Virus record (IMG/VR): IMGVR_UViG_2778261571_000014
Location: 1 to 8,785 of that record
DNA from: a virus
Taxonomy: Duplodnaviria > Heunggongvirae > Uroviricota > Caudoviricetes
Reading direction: 5' to 3' (one strand)
DNA length: 8,785 nucleotides
A model generated the notes under the pieces. The model worked only from the letters and a program-made list of their open reading frames with translations, ran no database searches and was not told the origin of the DNA. Position numbers and translations under genes: made by a program. Positions 1 through 8,785 of the stretch are shown here, piece after piece (position 1 is the stretch's first letter; the number at the start of each line of letters is the position of its first letter).

Positions 1-1410
1 GGATCACTGGCAGAGGCCGCAAATCAGAAAGGCGATTTCGCACAAAATGCAGCAAAAAATGCCGGAGTTAACCTTGCCGCTCAGGGGGTTCTTTCCGCAG
101 CAGCAAAGGGAATAGGGCGTGGAATAACGGCTATAAAAGGTGATATTGCGCCAGAAGTGGCGAAGAAAATTGCCACATCAGAATCGATGGGCGTGACACC
201 AATGACATCTGATGTTATCCCGCCGAAAAATGCTTTCACTCGCGGCCTAACTCAGGATGCCGAGGGGGCTTTGCTCGGGACAGGCTCAAAGCGAGCGGAG
301 CAATATGCAACGCGTAGTAAGCTGGTAAGTAATTATTTTGACCGTTTTGGTGAGTACAACCCTGATGATGTGGTGAAATCTCTTACCACCACGTTAAGGG
401 GGCGGAAGGATGCCGCTGGCGCTGTTATCAATGACGTCACCAATAAAATGGGTAATGCCGCAGTTGATACCACAAATACCATGAATGCTCTGAATACAGC
501 GATCGCAAGACAGGAACGGCTTGGGACGTCTGCCAATCAAAGCCTGCTTACATCCTTGCGTAACCTACGTGAAGAATTAGCAAACCCTGCAACTGATTTG
601 GATGTTACGTTTGATCTCTTGCGTCAGCACAGAACAGCATTTAGATCTAATGTTCAGGGAGATGCTATGGTCTTCCCCAACCAGGCAAAAGCAGCTACCA
701 ATATGGTAGAGAATGCAATGTCAAAAGACCTTCGTAACGCAGTTGCTAAAAACCTCGGTGCATCAGACGCAGCAAAATACCTTAAAGCAAATTCCGATTA
801 TGCAAACGTTTATAATAAGGTGCTTAATAAAAACATTGCCAACAAGCTCAACAAGGCAAGCAGTGAAGCCAGTCCTGAACTTATAAATACCGTTGTATTA
901 AGCAGAAAACCATCTGACGTGAAACGAATCTGGAGCGCACTGGATGATAAGGGGAAAGATGCTATGCGTGCAGCTTACGTCAGCAAAATAGCGGAAAAGG
1001 CCGGGGACTCTCCAGCCAAGTTCATCACTGAAGTTAATAAGCTGAAATCTCAGTCAGGCGGTGAAATTTACAACACTATTTTTTCTGGAAAGCACATGAA
1101 AGAGCTTGATGCTCTTCATGAAGTTCTACAGCAAACAGCAAGGTCAGACACCGCAAATGTAGTAACTCAGACGGGGCAATCGCAAGCCAACAGGATAAGG
1201 ACGATTGGCGCAACTACGACTCTTGGCGTATCAATGGGGCTTGAGGCTGGTTTCGGTGCAATGATGCGCTTGTATGAGTCTAAAGCAGCAAGAAACATGC
1301 TTCTCCGCCTTGCAAACGTCAAGCCTGGAACTCCGGCATATGAGCGAGCGTTAAATCAGGCTGCTAACGCCGTTCGCCCTCTCCTAACTAACGAAGCTAC
1401 CAGGCAGTAG
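1..1410 (+). CDS. Phage DNA-ejection (injection) protein, P22 gp16-like by position; 5'-truncated by the window edge
   Basis: Frame 1 is open from base 1 with no stop before the track ATG at 157, so the 417-aa ORF is the 3' part of a longer gene; stop TAG 1408-1410. The translation is Ala/Lys/Asn/Thr-rich with no TM segment. Product is assigned from synteny (directly upstream of the sie/immI block and tailspike), not from a recognised motif. Confidence 0.65.
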
Positions 1411-2437: not shown

Positions 2438-2465
2438 AACCCACCTTCAGGTGGGTTTTTTGTTT
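2438..2465. terminator. Bidirectional rho-independent terminator (AACCCACC-ttca-GGTGGGTT followed by TTTTGTTT)
   Basis: 8-bp stem 2438-2445 / 2450-2457, loop 2446-2449, T-run to 2465 on the + strand. On the minus strand the same stem is followed by AATTTTTGCCTTTTTT. The TGA stop of the minus-strand RHH gene (2449-2447) lies in the loop. Confidence 0.6.
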
Positions 2466-2767
2466 AGCAGTTCTCTCAACTTTTCGTTCTGCTCTCTGAA
2501 CTTTTCCTGTATTTCTTTTTGCATGGCGATAACCTGGGCTTGAAGTTGAACTAGCGCATCAACATTTAGCGGAACCGAGACGCTGTTGATTTTATCTGCT
2601 ATTTCCCCGAGTGTATTTTCTGCATTCAAGGCATCTTCCAGTATCTGAACAATCTCTGAGTTCATTGATCTGCCGTTACGTTTGGCTCGTTCAGCTATAG
2701 CATCCCGCATTCCTGCAGGAAGCCTGATATTGAACCTATCCATTTCATGACTAGGGAACTTGCTCAT
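2447..2767 (-). CDS. Ribbon-helix-helix (Arc/Mnt-family) repressor, 106 aa, with a C-terminal coiled-coil-like extension
   Basis: ATG 2767-2765 preceded by GAGG with 4-nt spacing; stop TGA 2449-2447. The N-terminus DRFNIRLPAGMRDAIAERAKRNGRSMNSEIVQILEDAL matches the Arc/Mnt beta-strand and helix signature (FN.R.P ... NGRS.NSE) recalled from P22 Arc and Mnt. It is divergent from the arc-like gene, which is the Mnt position in P22 immI. Confidence 0.75.
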   Translation of the reverse strand: MSKFPSHEMDRFNIRLPAGMRDAIAERAKRNGRSMNSEIVQILEDALNAENTLGEIADKINSVSVPLNVDALVQLQAQVIAMQKEIQEKFREQNEKLRELLNKKPT

Positions 2768-2803
2768 ATGACCTCAACGTAAAGATGTTCGCTAAACAAT
2801 AGC

Positions 2804-2866
2804 ACCAACTTGACATCAAAATAAATGGTGTTAAATTGGTTCTAGAACCAAGTTGGTATCATTATA
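2804..2866. promoter_or_regulatory. Divergent control region of the immI-like locus: rightward Pant-like promoter plus palindromic operator candidates
   Basis: Seen directly: -35 TTGACA (2810-2815), 16-bp spacer, extended -10 TGtTAAATT (TG 2829-2830, hexamer 2832-2837). A perfect 16-bp palindrome TTGGTTCTAGAACCAA (2836-2851) overlaps the -10 and predicted start. A 9-bp inverted repeat ACCAACTTG (2804-2812) / CAAGTTGGT (2849-2857) flanks it. A perfect TATAAT on the minus strand (2866-2861) is a candidate leftward -10 but has no good -35. Confidence 0.5.
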
Positions 2867-2878
2867 GGAGGATTACTT

Positions 2879-3052
2879 ATGAAAGATGTGCTTTACACAG
2901 GTCGTAAAAGTCAAAGTTTTCAGCTTCGTTTGCCAGCGCGAATGAAGGAGGAGATTAGACGTGTTGCTGAAATGGATGGAATTTCTATCAACTCTGCGAT
3001 TGTGCAGCGACTGGCTAAAAGCCTGAGAGAGGAAAGAGCTAATGCCCAGTAA
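2879..3052 (+). CDS. arc: Arc-like ribbon-helix-helix repressor, 57 aa (absent from the supplied ORF track, presumably below its length cutoff)
   Basis: ATG 2879 preceded by AGGAGG (2866-2871) with 7-nt spacing; stop TAA 3050-3052. Translation MKDVLYTGRKSQSFQLRLPARMKEEIRRVAEMDGISINSAIVQRLAKSLREERANAQ aligns by eye with P22 Arc (…QFNLRWPREV…AEENGRSVNSEIYQRV…). It lies between the divergent RHH gene and the antirepressor gene, as arc does in P22. Confidence 0.75.
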   Translation: MKDVLYTGRKSQSFQLRLPARMKEEIRRVAEMDGISINSAIVQRLAKSLREERANAQ

Positions 3053-3125
3053 AAATAGTGAAGCCCAGCAGTGCGCGAACACAAACTGGGCCTCTATGTC
3101 AGTAACCGTATGCAAGGAAACTAAC

Positions 3126-3752
3126 ATGAATATTGTAGCAAAATCAGATTACAACTTCCACGGAGTTGAGTTGGTGCCCACCCGTGATATGCATGGTGTT
3201 TGGTTTACATCATCTAATATTGCATCTGCACTTAAATACGCAAATAGTCGTGCAGTAACAATGATTTATAACAAGTATAGCGATGAGTTTAGCGCCGGAA
3301 TGACTCAGGTACTCGAAGTGAGTACCTCAGGAAATTATCGCAAAAAAGTGCGAGTTTTCTCACTACGCGGTGCCCACCTAATCGCGATGTTTGCTCGCAC
3401 TCCGGTAGCCAAAGAGTTTCGCCGCTGGGTGCTGGATATTTTGGATCGGCAGGCAGAATGCTCACCGATTGCAAAACAGTTTACTGACGAAGAACTGGTT
3501 AATCTCTGCTACTTACAATTGTGGATGGAGAAGAGTCAACAAATGTGCAAACACATCTACCCAGGAATGAAGCAAATTGGTTCTGAGCTTTCAGGAAGAA
3601 TTTACGATATTGCATATGAGACTCGCTATATGTCAGAAGAAACCAAGAAATCACTTCTTCGTGAAATGAAGAATCTTGATACCAACAATTTTGTCGTAAA
3701 GAACGCTCAGCCAATGCTGACAAAACTGCGCGGCGAGGAATGGATTCATTGA
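3126..3752 (+). CDS. Phage antirepressor, Bro-N/AntA-type N-terminal domain
   Basis: Track ORF 3042..3752. Preferred start is ATG 3126, preceded by AAGGAAA with 5-nt spacing. The recognisable domain (NFHGVELVPTRDMHGVWFTSSNIASALKY … VRVFSLRGAHLIAMFARTPVAKEFRRWVLDIL) begins about 10 aa after it and matches the Bro-N/AntA pattern (F.F…WF…A..L… ending …A..F..WV). The alternative ATG 3042 overlaps the arc stop by 11 nt and cannot be excluded. Stop TGA 3750-3752. Confidence 0.7.
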   Translation: MNIVAKSDYNFHGVELVPTRDMHGVWFTSSNIASALKYANSRAVTMIYNKYSDEFSAGMTQVLEVSTSGNYRKKVRVFSLRGAHLIAMFARTPVAKEFRRWVLDILDRQAECSPIAKQFTDEELVNLCYLQLWMEKSQQMCKHIYPGMKQIGSELSGRIYDIAYETRYMSEETKKSLLREMKNLDTNNFVVKNAQPMLTKLRGEEWIH

Positions 3753-3781
3753 TTGGTGCGCCGGACGGCGCAAAAAGAAAA

Positions 3782-3802
3782 CCGCCAGTGTGCTGCTGGC
3801 GG
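3782..3802 (-). terminator. Terminator-like GC-rich hairpin on the minus strand (CCGCCAG-7 nt-CTGGCGG followed by TTTTCTTTTT)
   Basis: 7-bp stem 3782-3788 / 3796-3802. On the minus strand it is followed by a T-tract (complement of the A-run 3772-3780); on the + strand no T-tract follows. A second short hairpin GCGCC-ggac-GGCGC lies at 3758-3771. No minus-strand gene is evident upstream of it. Confidence 0.3.
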
Positions 3803-3840
3803 CCTATGTCACACCCTTACTACCACATAAGGAATGCCTA

Positions 3841-4566
3841 ATGACTTTGAAGAATGTAGCAAACATCGGATCCGTTGTCACGGATAAAACCATTGACAGC
3901 CAAAGTCTTCTGATGATGGTTAATGAAGCTCGCAAGTTATGTGGAGAGCCATCAGTACGTAACAACAAATTCATCGAGAAAATTGAGGATGAATTGGAGG
4001 GCGAGACCTACACAAAAAGTGTAGGTCGGAAAAACGGGGCTGACATTGATGTTATCTCCATGACTATCAAGCAGGCGCTTCGTGTTGCTGCTCGCGAATC
4101 TAAAGCAGTTCGCCGAACACTTGTAGACAAACTTGAAAGTATGCAGGAAGCACACATTAAAAGCGGTAAATCAGCGAGTGGACTTGTTGAGTATCGTCAA
4201 GCGCGAACATTGAAAATGACGGTTGAAGCTGTTACCAATCTGTTCGATCTGATGCCAAATCTTGCGCCTGAGGCAAAGCAGACAGCGGCAGCAAGTATAA
4301 TCAACCCGCTCGTTGGTTTTAATGCAATACCTCTTCCGGCAATAGAAGAGCATTACTACTCAGCAGGGGAGGTTGCAGAGCAGCTTGGAGTAACGGCCAA
4401 CAAGATTGGTCGTATTGCTAACGCAAACAACCTCAAAACTGAGCAGTACGGGAAGTTCTTCCTAGATAAATCGGCGCATTCCAGCAAACAGGTAGAGGCG
4501 TTCCGTTACAATTCTGAAGGCGTTAAAGCACTACAACACCTGCTACATGGCTCAAATGTGGCGTAA
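3841..4566 (+). CDS. Second antirepressor-like / phage regulatory protein (Rha- or KilAC-like features), 241 aa
   Basis: Track ORF 3790..4566. Preferred start is ATG 3841, preceded by AAGGAA with 6-nt spacing; the 3790 start would place the GC hairpin in coding sequence and lacks an RBS. Stop TAA 4564-4566. The C-terminal segment SAGEVAEQLGVTANKIGRIANANNL looks like a helix-turn-helix. Family assignment is from memory of antirepressor C-terminal domains and is tentative. Confidence 0.55.
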   Translation: MTLKNVANIGSVVTDKTIDSQSLLMMVNEARKLCGEPSVRNNKFIEKIEDELEGETYTKSVGRKNGADIDVISMTIKQALRVAARESKAVRRTLVDKLESMQEAHIKSGKSASGLVEYRQARTLKMTVEAVTNLFDLMPNLAPEAKQTAAASIINPLVGFNAIPLPAIEEHYYSAGEVAEQLGVTANKIGRIANANNLKTEQYGKFFLDKSAHSSKQVEAFRYNSEGVKALQHLLHGSNVA

Positions 4567-4584
4567 CATTTTATAATGAAAACT

Positions 4585-4615
4585 AAACCCGCTTAATCGC
4601 GGGTTTTTTCTTTCC
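4585..4615. terminator. Bidirectional rho-independent terminator (AAACCCGC-ttaatc-GCGGGTTT followed by TTTCTTTCC)
   Basis: 8-bp stem 4585-4592 / 4599-4606 with a 6-nt loop, then a T-rich tract on the + strand and AGTTTTCATT on the minus strand. It lies 19 bp after the + gene stop (4566), and the minus-strand mnt-like stop (4595-4593) sits in the loop. Confidence 0.6.
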
Positions 4616-4850
4616 TTAGAATTTCAGCCGCAACTTCTTTTACTCGTTCCGAGATTAATGAGGCCAGCCTCTCTTCTTCATCACGATACCCGCTTACAGG
4701 TGATGGTTTGGAGAGTGATTCTTCCATCGTAGCCACAATTTCGGAATTGATAGACCTGTTATTCATTTTTGCACGCTGCTTAATCTTAGCGTGCAACTCG
4801 TGCGTAAGCCTCAAGTGGAACTGCGCCTCATCGTATTTGCTGTACATCAT
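4593..4850 (-). CDS. mnt: Mnt-type ribbon-helix-helix repressor homolog, 85 aa
   Basis: Track ORF 4593..4928(-). Preferred start is ATG 4850-4848, preceded by GAGG with 5-nt spacing. The product MMYSKYDEAQFHLRLTHELHAKIKQRAKMNNRSINSEIVATMEESLSKPSPVSGYRDEEERLASL… aligns along its length with P22 Mnt as recalled (…HFNFRMPMEVREKLKFRAEANGRSMNSELLQIVQDALSKPSPVTGYRNDAERLA…). The upstream extension (MHTEMVRLLICTVGFTMPFHPFGEAL) has no RBS. Confidence 0.8.
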   Translation of the reverse strand: MMYSKYDEAQFHLRLTHELHAKIKQRAKMNNRSINSEIVATMEESLSKPSPVSGYRDEEERLASLISERVKEVAAEILRKEKTRD

Positions 4851-4982
4851 CAATGCCTCACCAAATGGGTGGAATGGCATCGTAAAACCTACTGTACAAA
4901 TCAACAATCGTACCATTTCGGTATGCAATAAACACCAACCGTAGCCATGCTGCGGCGATTCCTTGTATCTGGAGCAAATTAA

Positions 4983-6896
4983 ATGACAGATTCAATAAAT
5001 GCCAATGTTGTAGTAAGCATGCCTTCTCAACTCTTCACTATGGCTCGTTCTTTTAAAGCCGTAGCCAATGGCAAAATTTATATCGGTAAAATTGACACGG
5101 ACCCGGTAAATCCTGAAAACCAGATTCAGGTTTATGTGGAGAACGAAGATGGTTCTCACGTTCCTGTTTCGCAACCAATCATCATTAACGCTGCTGGATA
5201 TCCGGTATATAACGGACAGATTGCTAAGTTCGTAACTGTGCAAGGCCATTCTATGGCTGTTTATGATGCGTATGGTGCACAGCAGTTCAATTTTCCAAAC
5301 GTGCTGAAGTATGATCCTGATCAGTTTCGTCAGGAACTGGCAGGTAATAGTGGTGCGTCACAGATTGGTTCCTCATCAGGAAATACTGTTCAACAAGAAA
5401 TAGATCGTCTAAATAAATTTGGTTATGCTTATGGTGTTAGATTAAGCGCGTATATGCATGAAAGCGACCCCTTAACAAGCGCCCTGACTGCATCACGGGA
5501 AAAAAGACTACCACTTGTCATTGATTGTGATGCGACATATAAAACTTTAGTGGTTTACAGTAATGACAGAATAATTGGCTGCGGTGATCATACATTAACA
5601 AAATCCGGTAATGATAAGCCATCCATTCCACCGGCACAACAACCAGAACGCCCTTCTGGTTCGATGACTAATTTTAGTGAAATTGATGCAGGTATCGTTA
5701 TTGTTCACCCTGACAATGGGTCGGCAACCAATATTATTATTTCAGGGTTTAACCTCGCGACTAACTCACATTGCGACTATGCGATACATTGCTCTTTCAT
5801 GTCTTTTACAAAAATAGAAGATATGAAGTTCAACGGGTACAAGCGTGGGATTAAATGGTACACCGCCTATGGAAATCAGCTATCCAGAATATTTTCACTT
5901 TACTACTATTCTGTCACTGATGTTTTTTCAGACTATATTTGCTACGATTTTTCTGACGGTAACTACCCATCAGGCACATCAAATACCCTAACAAACGTAA
6001 CATGCACCAACTATAAGAAATGCTATTACGTAGCAAATCTAAACTACTCTACATTTACCAATTGTGGTGGTGAAGGAGTAGAGTCACCAACACCAGTATC
6101 CACAGGAAACATCCCACAGACCTTCGAGTTTGTCAATTGCCCTAATATTGTCCTGAATACACCATATACTGAGAATTTAAGGGGTGGATTTATAAGGGCA
6201 GTTAGTGATGCATCCGGGGTGTATCAAGGTGCCGCAACTATGGTCATCAATGGGCCAGAGGCGGTCGTGGGTATCACAGGCACCACTACCAATGTTGGCG
6301 CTAAGCTTCTGGACATTCAGGGAGGAGTTAACTGTGTGATAAACGGTGGATACATGACAGGTGCTGCAAGTGGGTATTTCCTTGAGTTTGGTGGGGCATC
6401 GGATGACGCAACCCTTACGATAATAGGGATGGAAATGCGCAACGTATTAGAACAAATACGAAACCATCCTGGATATAACGGAATTAACTCTATAAAAGGG
6501 TTAAGGCCTATGCAGTTACTTCGTAAAGGGATTGGAGATGCGACCGGGACCGGGATAGTAAACTGGAAAACAGCTGCCGAAGACCAGTATTTTATGGGCG
6601 GGGGAAATTTCACTAAAACAATACTTGGTGGATTTTATAAGATAGAAATTACGTTACCCATAGGATCTTCCGCATCAGGCGGAGAAGTTCAACTCTTGCT
6701 GTCAGATACGGATACAGACAATGGAGTTATAATTTCACAATGCTATGTTCCTCCAGTGTCAAGCGGTAAGTTTACTGCCTCCATAAGCTACGAGGGTAGA
6801 TTGCCAGGTGGAAAGTTTCTTTATGTAAAAACTAATAATGCCAATTGGTCATCTGGATACGATCCAGACTCAATATTTAATGTTGTTCTGAAATAA
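4983..6896 (+). CDS. Tailspike protein (P22 gp9-like N-terminal head-binding domain; divergent C-terminal receptor-binding domain), 637 aa
   Basis: ATG 4983 preceded by GGAG with 8-nt spacing; stop TAA 6894-6896. The first ~113 aa ([12 protein letters not shown]…[21 protein letters not shown]…ENEDGSHV…[12 protein letters not shown]…VLKYDPDQ) closely match the P22 tailspike N-terminus as recalled. The rest is Gly/Thr/Asn/Ser-rich, consistent with a beta-rich receptor-binding domain, and is not recognisably P22-like. Confidence 0.9.
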
Positions 6897-7284
6897 CAAT
6901 ATTTATAATGATGCACGCAAAGCTTTGTACTGGATTGCAAGGCTTTGCGCTATACGATAGTGGCTAAGGTGGGTCACTCTACCTTCTCATCAATCCAGTC
7001 CGCCCACCATTGCATCATTTCTCTGCGCTTAACGTAGCGGATGCCTCACTATCACACGGTGATGGTTCATTACTGGTTTGCAGAATGGATAGAGAACTGA
7101 GGATAAAAGATATCCCAAAACCCCAAAATCTCATCTTTAGGATTTGCAGAAAGGTAGGCGTGAACAGATACCTACGCATGAAGACGGGACTAGCTCAGAT
7201 GTGATATTTGTGGTGATCACATACATCATCAACGATGCTCGTTATGGTGAGTTTGATGACTACCCGCTGAAGTGAAAATTGTGT

Positions 7285-7308
7285 TGTGTACCAAATTGCG
7301 TACCAAAC
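7285..7308. repeat. Tandem 12-bp direct repeat (TGTGTACCAAAT / TGCGTACCAAAC) in the prophage-host junction region
   Basis: Two adjacent 12-mers identical at 10 of 12 positions; the core GTACCAAA occurs at 7288-7295 and 7300-7307. Function unknown; could be a protein-binding site or an att-proximal arm-type site. Confidence 0.3.
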
Positions 7309-7618
7309 TAAAATCACAAATCATGAAACCCTTGTTCATGGCGGTTCTCAGGGGTGTTTCGCGTAATCGTGAAACAAAAAGGTAGATTGTTGCTTACCGT
7401 CATTCATCATTAGGTTAAATCCGTTATTTCTGCTGTCTGCCAGAGTATCAAATATCACCGTGCTAATCAGCTTTAGCGCCACAATTTGGCAGCGAGTGGC
7501 AACAGATCATGTCAGATAAAAATGAGAGGGTAGTCACATTTTCTTGCACTTTATTCCAGCCAGTTCATAAGTATTTCCGTAAAAAGAACAGCTATTTGAA
7601 ACTCCTGAGGGTTTGCTG

Positions 7619-8785
7619 TTGAAACGCCGTCTTATTATTGCTGCTTCTTTGTTCGTTTTTAACTTATCGTCTGGTTTTGCGGCGGAAAACATTCCTTTTT
7701 CACCTCAGCCTCCAGAGATTCATGCCGGGTCCTGGGTATTGATGGATTACACCACCAGTCAGATCCTCACCGCGGTTAATGAGCATCAACAGCGCAATCC
7801 CGCCAGCCTGACAAAGCTGATGACGGGTTATGTCGTGGATCGCGCTATCGATAGTCATCGCATTACGCCAGACGATATTGTCACCGTGGGGCGCGATGCG
7901 TGGGCGAAAGATAATCCGGTGTTTGTCGGTTCTTCACTGATGTTTTTGAAAGAGGGCGATCGCGTATCGGTACGTGATTTAAGCCGTGGTTTAATTGTGG
8001 ATTCCGGAAATGACGCTTGTGTTGCTCTGGCTGACTATATTGCCGGTGGGCAACGGCAGTTTGTTGAAATGATGAACAACTATGCCGAGAAGCTGCATCT
8101 CAAGGATACGCATTTTGAAACAGTGCATGGTCTGGATGCACCTGGCCAGCATAGCTCGGCTTATGATTTAGCTGTGCTTTCTCGCGCTATCATCCACGGC
8201 GAGCCCGAGTTTTATCATATGTACAGTGAGAAAAGTCTCACCTGGAACGGTATCACCCAGCAAAACCGTAACGGGTTGTTGTGGGATAAAACCATGAATG
8301 TTGACGGCCTGAAAACGGGTCATACTTCTGGTGCCGGGTTTAATCTCATTGCTTCGGCTGTAGATGGGCAGCGTCGTCTCATTGCAGTGGTAATGGGGGC
8401 TGACAGTGCAAAAGGTCGTGAGGAAGAGGCAAGAAAATTACTGCGTTGGGGGCAACAAAACTTTACTACGGTGCAAATTTTGCACCGTGGGAAAAAGGTC
8501 GGAACGGAACGCATCTGGTATGGCGATAAAGAAAATATCGACCTGGGAACGGAACAAGAGTTCTGGATGGTGCTACCGAAAGCCGAAATTCCACATATCA
8601 AAGCCAAATATACCCTTGATGGTAAAGAGCTCACCGCGCCAATTAGCGCCCATCAGCGGGTAGGGGAAATTGAACTTTACGACCGTGATAAACAGGTGGC
8701 GCACTGGCCGCTGGTTACCCTGGAATCTGTCGGGGAAGGCGGCATGTTTTCCCGCCTGAGTGATTATTTCCACCATAAGGCCTGA
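7619..8785 (+). CDS. dacD: D-alanyl-D-alanine carboxypeptidase DacD (penicillin-binding protein 6b), host gene
   Basis: The translation carries the three class-A PBP active-site motifs: SxxK (NPASLTKLMT), SGN (VDSGNDA) and KTG (GLKTGHT), behind a signal-peptide-like N-terminus (RRLIIAASLFVFNLSSGFA). It matches E. coli DacD as I recall it. Preferred start is TTG 7619, with GAGG (7607-7610) 8 nt upstream, giving the 388-aa MKRRLII… protein; the track's TTG 7613 has only 2-nt spacing. Stop TGA 8783-8785. Confidence 0.9.
   Translation: MKRRLIIAASLFVFNLSSGFAAENIPFSPQPPEIHAGSWVLMDYTTSQILTAVNEHQQRNPASLTKLMTGYVVDRAIDSHRITPDDIVTVGRDAWAKDNPVFVGSSLMFLKEGDRVSVRDLSRGLIVDSGNDACVALADYIAGGQRQFVEMMNNYAEKLHLKDTHFETVHGLDAPGQHSSAYDLAVLSRAIIHGEPEFYHMYSEKSLTWNGITQQNRNGLLWDKTMNVDGLKTGHTSGAGFNLIASAVDGQRRLIAVVMGADSAKGREEEARKLLRWGQQNFTTVQILHRGKKVGTERIWYGDKENIDLGTEQEFWMVLPKAEIPHIKAKYTLDGKELTAPISAHQRVGEIELYDRDKQVAHWPLVTLESVGEGGMFSRLSDYFHHKA

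Follow-up and report, generated by a model that had tools for sequence, protein, structure and literature searches.

An immI-like locus with three ribbon-helix-helix genes beside the tailspike gene of a P22-like Escherichia coli prophage

The immI region of phage P22 is a textbook regulatory circuit, in which the repressor gene mnt stands divergent from arc and the antirepressor gene ant. The stretch of DNA analysed here, referred to as the window, comprises the 8,785 nucleotides of IMG/VR record IMGVR_UViG_2778261571_000014 and is the right end of a P22-like (Lederbergvirus-type) E. coli prophage. It carries a locus resembling immI in which three genes encode ribbon-helix-helix (RHH) proteins: a 106-residue repressor (RHH106), the Arc-like first product of an operon that continues with two antirepressor-type genes, ant1 and ant2, and, beyond this operon, an 85-residue Mnt homologue whose gene faces the tailspike gene. 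This arrangement raises the question of which RHH protein controls the antirepressor operon, and of what a Mnt homologue does at the far end of it. The locus is likely to be a composite of two independent regulatory modules, situated in the hypervariable ant moron (the interval between P22 genes 16 and 9), in which the Mnt homologue does not control the ant operon. The evidence for this answer is drawn from gene content, homology, collinearity with P22, the covariation of DNA-reading strands with operators, the independent distribution of the modules, and purifying selection.

Two modules between the ejection-protein and tailspike genes

The locus lies between homologues of P22 gene 16, which encodes an ejection protein, and gene 9, which encodes the tailspike. 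The region from the ejection genes to the tailspike is the most variable part of P22-like late operons. It has been named the 'ant moron', and ten types of it were distinguished among sixteen genomes (Villafane et al. 2008, PMC2629481). All five regulatory genes of the locus were recovered with exactly the boundaries and strands of a preliminary description made from the sequence alone (Table 1). That description had also taken three of the products for RHH proteins with different DNA-contacting strands. The Pfam Arc domain (PF03869) is indeed found in all three, and alignment with P22 Arc and Mnt places RFNIRL of RHH106, SFQLRL of Arc and QFHLRL of the Mnt homologue on the DNA-reading strand. 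The possibility of a pseudogene was checked as well: all five genes are under purifying selection (dN/dS of arc, 0.01-0.28), the alleles of relatives are intact, and none of the five is a pseudogene.

The locus divides into a left module (2447-4566), an immI-type cassette complete in itself, and a right module (4593-4982), which forms an orphan mnt unit. The likeness to P22 extends from the position between genes 16 and 9 to a repressor gene divergent from an arc-ant operon with arc first, overlapping back-to-back promoters, a sar unit at the arc-ant junction and a terminator before the tailspike leader. Moreover, the likeness of the 85-residue protein to Mnt spans its full length, its promoter is Pmnt-like, and its operator stands where Omnt stands in P22. 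In contrast to P22, the repressor divergent from arc is not Mnt-like beyond its RHH domain, the operon has two genes of the antirepressor type with one antisense unit apiece, and ant1 has a Bro-N domain instead of the N-terminal domain of P22 Ant. The Mnt homologue is encoded downstream of the operon and convergent on it, so that its operator faces the tailspike gene and not the ant promoter. In other words, the divergent repressor of this locus is not a Mnt homologue with its operator at the start of the ant promoter.

One reading in the preliminary description, a mosaic of two immunity modules, is borne out by other phages, in which the left cassette occurs without the Mnt-like unit and the Mnt-like unit without the left cassette. 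The relatives compared were the 80 closest IMG/VR loci. In 78 of these 80, the tailspike gene lies directly upstream of the Mnt-like gene and divergent from it, and the content beyond the mnt terminator varies: 27 loci have the Mnt-like gene alone, 22 have an S24-type repressor, an arc-like gene and ant genes, as in JEP4, 25 have three RHH genes (the left RHH gene with arc and ant genes), and six are arranged otherwise. JEP4 shares with the window the C-terminal part of ant1, ant2, the Mnt-like gene and the start of the tailspike gene, and its left part consists of the S24-type repressor and an unrelated arc-like gene. The Mnt gene stands alone beside the tailspike gene in Sf101, VSe13, L and 720R6, and the left cassette is found without any Mnt homologue in Oslo, SPN3UB and the Shiga toxin (Stx)-converting phages.

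Two side observations concern these relatives. The JEP4 type of locus (L001, 3093-4007) encodes a 213-residue repressor with a helix-turn-helix and a peptidase S24 domain (LexA/CI-like) and an unrelated 57-residue arc-like product; such loci suggest an alternative control of the same antirepressor genes, one that could respond to RecA. Furthermore, most relatives have a 73-residue open reading frame (ORF; PHROG 4977) between ant2 and the terminator, for example at 6170-6391 of locus L002, which is cleanly missing from the window (4566-4585) and from about one third of the related loci.

Table 1. Genes and predicted regulatory elements of the locus and its flanks (window coordinates).
Feature	Position	Strand	Basis or remark
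DNA transfer/ejection-protein ORF	157-1410		C-terminal part similar to JEP4_13
Terminator-like hairpin, bidirectional, just past the 3' end of the RHH106 gene	2438-2457		Terminator scan
RHH106, 106-residue RHH repressor gene	2447-2767	-	Pfam Arc, E 1.6e-20
Predicted RHH106 promoter, extended -10	2796-2804	-	TGCTATTGT; inferred from sequence
Candidate RHH106 operator array	2804-2857		Four ACCAA/TTGGT pentamers
Predicted arc-ant1-ant2 promoter	2810-2837	+	TTGACA 2810-2815, 16-nt spacer, TAAATT 2832-2837, TG 2829-2830
arc, 57-residue Arc-like RHH protein, first operon gene	2879-3052	+	Pfam Arc, E 8.3e-12; PDB Arc entries matched
P22 sar homologue, arc-ant1 junction	3056-3140	-
sar-homologue RNA, predicted, about 72 nt	3056-3127	-	Two hairpins; terminator 3051-3094
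sar-homologue extended -10, predicted	3132-3140	-	TGCTACAAT; inside the 5' end of ant1
ant1, antirepressor-like, 208 residues	3126-3752	+	Pfam Bro-N and P22AR_C
Second sar-like unit, putative	3770-3861	-	Over the ant2 ribosome-binding site and start codon
Terminator of the second sar-like unit, predicted	3772-3804	-	GGCCGCCAG...CTGGCGG
Extended -10 of the second sar-like unit, predicted	3853-3861	-	TGCTACATT
ant2, 241 residues	3841-4566	+	PHROG 1726 'anti-repressor', 4e-101
Terminator, bidirectional, between ant2 and the Mnt-like gene	4585-4606		Terminator scan; at the P22 t_ant position
Mnt homologue gene, 85 residues (84 if the start is 4847)	4593-4850	-	Pfam Arc, E 3.2e-15
Predicted promoter of the Mnt-like gene	4879-4907	-	-35 TTGTTG 4902-4907, 17-nt spacer, -10 TACGAT 4879-4884
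Predicted operator of the Mnt homologue, 15 bp	4910-4924		GTACCATTTCGGTAT; at the P22 Omnt position
Tailspike leader ('boundary sequence')	4939-4982	+	Nearly identical to the P22 gene 9 leader
Tailspike gene	4983-6896	+	Pfam Head_binding, 3e-64 (N-terminal head-binding domain)

Candidate operators and antisense RNAs of the arc-ant cassette

RHH106 occupies the place held by mnt in P22, divergent from arc, and had been described together with the 85-residue protein as one of two Mnt-type repressors. This description fits the 85-residue protein, which is Mnt-like over its full length, but not RHH106, which matches Mnt only in the RHH domain. Its similarity to PDB entry 1mnt is confined to residues 10-51, and its best solved relative is AmrZ. 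RHH106 thus resembles Mnt, Arc and AmrZ in the RHH domain only, with a C-terminal half unrelated to Mnt. This half is itself exchangeable: in Oslo, SPN3UB and 14 IMG/VR loci it is replaced by unrelated sequence, which marks a second joint after the RHH domain. From its position and predicted sites, RHH106 is probably the maintenance repressor of the arc-ant operon. Separately, chain G of PDB entry 9pio, a 79-residue 'Arc family DNA-binding protein', gives an RHH-domain match to both RHH106 and the Arc-like protein (E about 5e-5).

The predicted leftward -10 of RHH106 sits directly behind the rightward -35 of the arc-ant operon within the 2768-2878 interval, so that the two promoters would stand back-to-back, as Pant and Pmnt do in P22. 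The rightward promoter matches the consensus at 10 of 12 positions and is kept across cassette variants. The leftward extended -10 is kept in Oslo and in the type-3 cassettes despite differing upstream DNA. A perfect 16-bp palindrome, TTGGTTCTAGAACCAA (2836-2851), overlaps the -10 end and the start site of the arc-ant promoter, and it is flanked by the inverted repeat ACCAACTTG (2804-2812) and CAAGTTGGT (2849-2857).

Two comparisons connect these motifs with RHH106. In ten IMG/VR loci the arc strand SFQLRL is kept (Arc being 96% identical), and the strand of the left RHH protein is RFTVRM or RFTVRL. Nine of these ten have CATCA repeats and a 21-bp palindrome, ATGACATCATGGTGATGTCAT, in place of the ACCAA repeats; the tenth (L060) has the CATCA repeats with only a partial palindrome. 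Because the motif changes along with the strand of the left RHH protein and the strand of Arc does not, the palindrome and the repeats are assigned to RHH106. The second comparison is with the homologue in Stx phages: from about residue 19 through to the C-terminus it has the same sequence as RHH106, and the differences lie in the strand, in the intergenic DNA and in arc. The joint in the DNA falls at about window position 2721, just after the beta-strand, which likewise supports the assignment of the palindrome to RHH106. Repressor specificity appears to move as a unit, consisting of the N-terminal beta-strand and the adjacent operators, with the joint just after the strand.

Beyond promoter control, the operon may be subject to antisense regulation. 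The arc-ant1 junction aligns with the annotated Psar promoter and sar RNA of P22 across the ant ribosome-binding site. The sar homologue folds at -33.5 kcal/mol with a z-score of -6.05 (P22 sar, -5.26), and two compensatory stem changes are found among 23 variants. The second sar-like unit, at ant2, keeps its promoter and terminator in 52 loci, diverged ones included; no covariation was found, and its fold has a z-score of only -1.85, weakly better than shuffled sequences. By these measures the ant2 antisense unit appears weaker than the sar homologue at ant1. A scan of the whole window and of the two antisense regions against Rfam gave no family above threshold. Identity with symR was considered for the antisense RNA and rejected, as the weak match (E 0.17) reflects a similar two-hairpin shape only. 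As for ant2 itself, it has no Pfam match, and its antirepressor label comes from PHROG 1726 alone.

Taken together, these features would give the left module a complete circuit. RHH106, expressed from the leftward promoter, would bind the ACCAA/TTGGT repeats and the palindrome and keep arc-ant1-ant2 silent in the lysogen. Arc, as the first product of the operon, would exert negative feedback, and each ant gene would be further damped by a short antisense RNA from a promoter within its own 5' end. Transcription of the operon would end at the 4585-4606 terminator.

The Mnt homologue and its link to the tailspike gene

Residues 7-78 of the 85-residue protein align with residues 3-74 of PDB entry 1mnt (E 9e-16, phmmer), including SKPSPVxGYR. 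The protein has the RHH domain, the Mnt-specific linker and the C-terminal helix, at 45% identity to P22 Mnt. It is represented by 54 distinct intact alleles of 84-89 residues, with dN/dS of 0.09-0.38 even at saturating dS. A longer start (MPFHPFGEAL..., as in the annotation of Sf101) is less likely, because the ATG at 4850 or 4847 has a strong GGTGAGG Shine-Dalgarno sequence and matches the N-terminus of P22 Mnt.

The predicted promoter of the Mnt-like gene lines up with Pmnt as annotated in P22 (TTGAGA, 17 nt, TATCAT). A fixed upstream order is common to the window, P22, L, 720R6, Sf101 and VSe13: the palindrome, ATTG, TTGnnn, 17 nt, TAnnAT, GATGCC, a Shine-Dalgarno sequence and ATG. The interval between the Mnt-like gene and the tailspike gene is 132 bp here, 135 bp in L and in VSe13, and 121 bp in Sf101, all collinear. 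Read in the mnt sense, the operator is AGGTCCACCGTGGACCT in P22 (annotated), AAGACCACGGTGGTCTT in L and, in the window, ATACCGAAATGGTAC. The consensus for the family is GTACCGAAACGGTAC. The 80 IMG/VR loci gave 56 distinct upstream variants, the majority of which read ATACCGAAACGGTAC and approach the symmetric form GTACCG-AAA-CGGTAC. These operators covary with the DNA-reading strand. The strand HFNFRM of P22 pairs with operator class GGTCCACCGTGGACC, QFNLRL (L, 720R6 and three IMG/VR loci) with AGACCACnGTGGTCT, and QFHLRL, as here, with (G/A)TACCnAAAyGGTAC. The contrast is most direct with phage L, in which QFNLRL goes with AGACCACGGTGGTCT, whereas here QFHLRL goes with GTACCGAAACGGTAC.

The operator appears to be solitary and linked to the tailspike side. 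An operator of the GTACCGAAACGGTAC type has a single good copy in the window, in the JEP4 genome and in the Sf101 genome, and no further site of the Mnt type above chance turned up in a search around the ant promoters, ahead of ant2 and in the rest of the JEP4 and Sf101 genomes. One perfect TACC-N5-GGTA core, TACCAATATGGTA at 696-708 inside the ejection-protein gene, was set aside as probably due to chance, since the motif is no more frequent in the window than in shuffled sequences. A scan for the operator together with the promoter start listed more than 119 contigs, of which 80 were examined and 73 of these are complete at the locus. All 73 complete loci (80 examined of at least 119 listed) have the order tailspike-operator-mnt, and in none of the same 73 does arc or ant follow the operator, nor does an ant promoter adjoin it. 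The distance from the operator to the tailspike ATG is 58 bp here and 47-59 bp in most of the operator loci examined. The retained Mnt homologue is thus strictly tied to the tailspike gene. Because of this linkage, the variable flank on the other side, the single operator and the purifying selection, the Mnt homologue is probably a functional, locally acting repressor and not a regulator of the neighbouring ant operon.

In the composite reading, the right module would be the remnant of a P22-type immI region after the loss of arc and ant. The Mnt homologue, expressed from its Pmnt-like promoter, would bind the single operator at 4910-4924, between that promoter and the tailspike leader; it would most likely regulate its own synthesis, and it may limit rightward transcription into the tailspike gene. 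We infer this role, as well as the binding assignments and the promoter activities in both modules, from the comparisons given above.

A stronger role at the tailspike, along the lines of the second idea in the preliminary description, is conceivable. The Mnt homologue could act as a gatekeeper of the tailspike gene in the lysogen, by repressing a residual rightward promoter or by blocking read-through, which seems possible but rather doubtful. The short and regular spacing between operator and tailspike ATG and the invariant linkage of mnt to the tailspike gene are consistent with it, as is the purifying selection on mnt even in phages without an ant gene; it has also been speculated that Mnt and Arc affect transcription into P22 gene 9 (PMC2629481). 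However, the sole candidate for a rightward promoter is a degenerate relic of Pant (approximately ATGGCA, 16 nt, ACAAAT, with no A at -11) that the promoter scan did not pick up, and nothing promoter-like is conserved downstream of the operator toward the tailspike gene. The tight linkage itself may only reflect a short junction without a recombination site. In a related and equally tentative form of this idea, the orphan Mnt and its single operator would be a dedicated control element of the tailspike gene, co-inherited with the head-binding domain and setting how much transcription reaches the tailspike. This transcription could, with no greater confidence, come from the late or the ant operon or start at a weak promoter nearby. 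If true, the idea would give a classic repressor family a new role, and it would account for the persistence of mnt, under purifying selection, in many P22-like phages without an antirepressor.

It is much less probable that the three RHH proteins form one integrated circuit in which each acts on the single arc-ant promoter, the Mnt homologue by way of a site near 2846-2858. A sequence in that place, AACCAAGTTGGTA, lies just downstream of the arc promoter and differs by one mismatch from TACC-N5-GGTA. The motif has five matches in the window against 1.9 expected, and 9 of 200 shuffles reach five, so that its count is not above chance; the fuller operator pattern gives no second site. Furthermore, left modules of the JEP4 type and of type 3 do not have the 2846-2858 site, and the same Mnt homologue is kept beside them; it is also found without any ant gene. 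The least credible alternative sees in the Mnt homologue a remnant of a decayed immI with no function left, a possibility raised by the authors of the phage L genome (PMC8022706). In its favour are the loss of the partner genes arc and ant and the degenerate state of the Pant relic; it is contradicted by the 54 intact alleles with their low dN/dS, by the conservation of operator and promoter amid variable adjacent DNA, and by the covariation of the operator with the strand.

Several points weigh against the composite of two independent modules. The strong purifying selection on the orphan Mnt implies a function that this model names only in part, and the Mnt homologue could conceivably also bind the AACCAAGTTGGTA site near the arc promoter. 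In the left module, the Stx and SPN3UB cassettes are alike in both strands, and their intergenic DNA is rather different except for a TGGnGCCA inverted repeat, so that the mapping from strand to operator is not simple. When cassettes sharing the Arc strand were compared, no symmetric site was found, and the Arc operator was not located; the elements common to these cassettes were limited to AATGG(T/C), which lies within the spacer of the promoter, and TAGCAyCA, which precedes the -35. The three operator specificities proposed in the preliminary description are therefore supported by covariation for RHH106 (2804-2857) and for the Mnt homologue (4910-4924), and not for Arc. The literature search found no study of binding, transcription or phenotype, nor any other experimental study, of this arrangement. 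In a 2026 transcriptome of the related E. coli phage Kapi1, mnt had no detectable transcript in lysogens (PMC12922286).

Recurrence, related phages and flanking genes

With a threshold of at least 80% coverage, 24 of the 5,426 complete genomes of E. coli contain the whole locus. Strain 55989 is one of them, and RefSeq labels all three of its small genes 'Arc family DNA-binding protein'. The mnt unit occurs in 105 genomes and the type-1 left cassette in 19. The locus had been called atypical; this holds relative to P22, but the arrangement recurs, both in these 24 genomes and, among the 80 closest IMG/VR loci, in the 25 with three RHH genes. What recurs is a variant of a known, highly mosaic region, built from known kinds of parts, and not a new kind of system. 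It does indicate that in this variant, which is common in E. coli, the job of Mnt is probably not done by the protein with the Mnt-like sequence; a non-Mnt RHH protein with its own operators seems to have taken it over.

The closest counterparts of the right module are the orphan-mnt morons of L, ST64T, ST104 and Sf101, in which mnt and the tailspike gene are divergent, the promoter of mnt resembles Pmnt, and a palindrome in the place of Omnt is directly followed by the boundary sequence. Unlike these, the present locus has a complete second antirepressor cassette beyond the mnt terminator. The mnt-only arrangement was described earlier for L, ST64T and ST104 (PMC2629481; Zaworski et al. 2020, PMC8022706). 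For the left module, the Salmonella siphovirus Oslo (vB_SosS_Oslo) has identical beta-strands and the same palindrome, with a different promoter spacer. Oslo, SPN3UB and the Stx-converting phages all share the three-part arrangement of arc-like gene, Arc and Ant with the same promoter architecture; in contrast to the window, their cassette lies among tail genes, with one ant gene and no neighbouring Mnt homologue, and the SPN3UB and Stx versions have other strands and operators. E. coli HS (HS-1) matches ant1, ant2 and the Mnt-like gene at 98% identity, but an IS3 family transposase is annotated within the matched stretch; the HS-1 moron was described as lacking arc (Villafane et al. 2008, PMC2629481). 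CUS-3, another P22-like prophage of E. coli, has two mnt-type genes, in tandem and without arc. Kapi1 was considered as a case of the same architecture and rejected, since it has a P22-type mnt, arc-ant layout with an HNH endonuclease gene before the tailspike gene.

The tailspike leader begins with a hairpin, CCGTAGC-CAT-GCTGCGG (4939-4955), and the record of CUS-3 annotates this leader as bsq1. In relatives the hairpin keeps its pairing with changed base pairs (CCGCAGC-TCT-GCTGTGG and CGCATC-TCC-GATGTG). P22 has the same leader and, in addition, a second partial copy after t_ant.

On the left flank, the C-terminal part of the product of ORF 157-1410 is similar to the C-terminus of the JEP4 DNA transfer protein JEP4_13 when the translations are compared, and RefSeq relatives label the gene at this position 'DNA transfer protein' or 'hypothetical protein'. 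The three small genes between it and RHH106 (1430-2363) occupy the place of sieA, hkcC and orf59a in P22. They are PHROG 8100 (given as 109 residues by RefSeq, one hydrophobic stretch being a possible membrane span), which as a 181-residue ORF overlaps the next gene on the opposite strand, as well as PHROG 1365 (121 residues) and PHROG 3202 (64 residues), both of which accompany the RHH106 gene in IMG/VR loci. A PADLOC scan of the small neighbouring genes gave no meaningful match.

On the right flank, the tailspike gene is followed by about 700 bp without a long ORF (none above 64 residues) and then by ORF 7613-8785, which is presumably dacD. No O-antigen modification genes and no tRNA gene were found in 6897-8785. 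Because the ORF taken as dacD begins about 700 bp past the tailspike gene, the prophage should end soon after the tailspike, with the attachment-site junction in 6897-7612.

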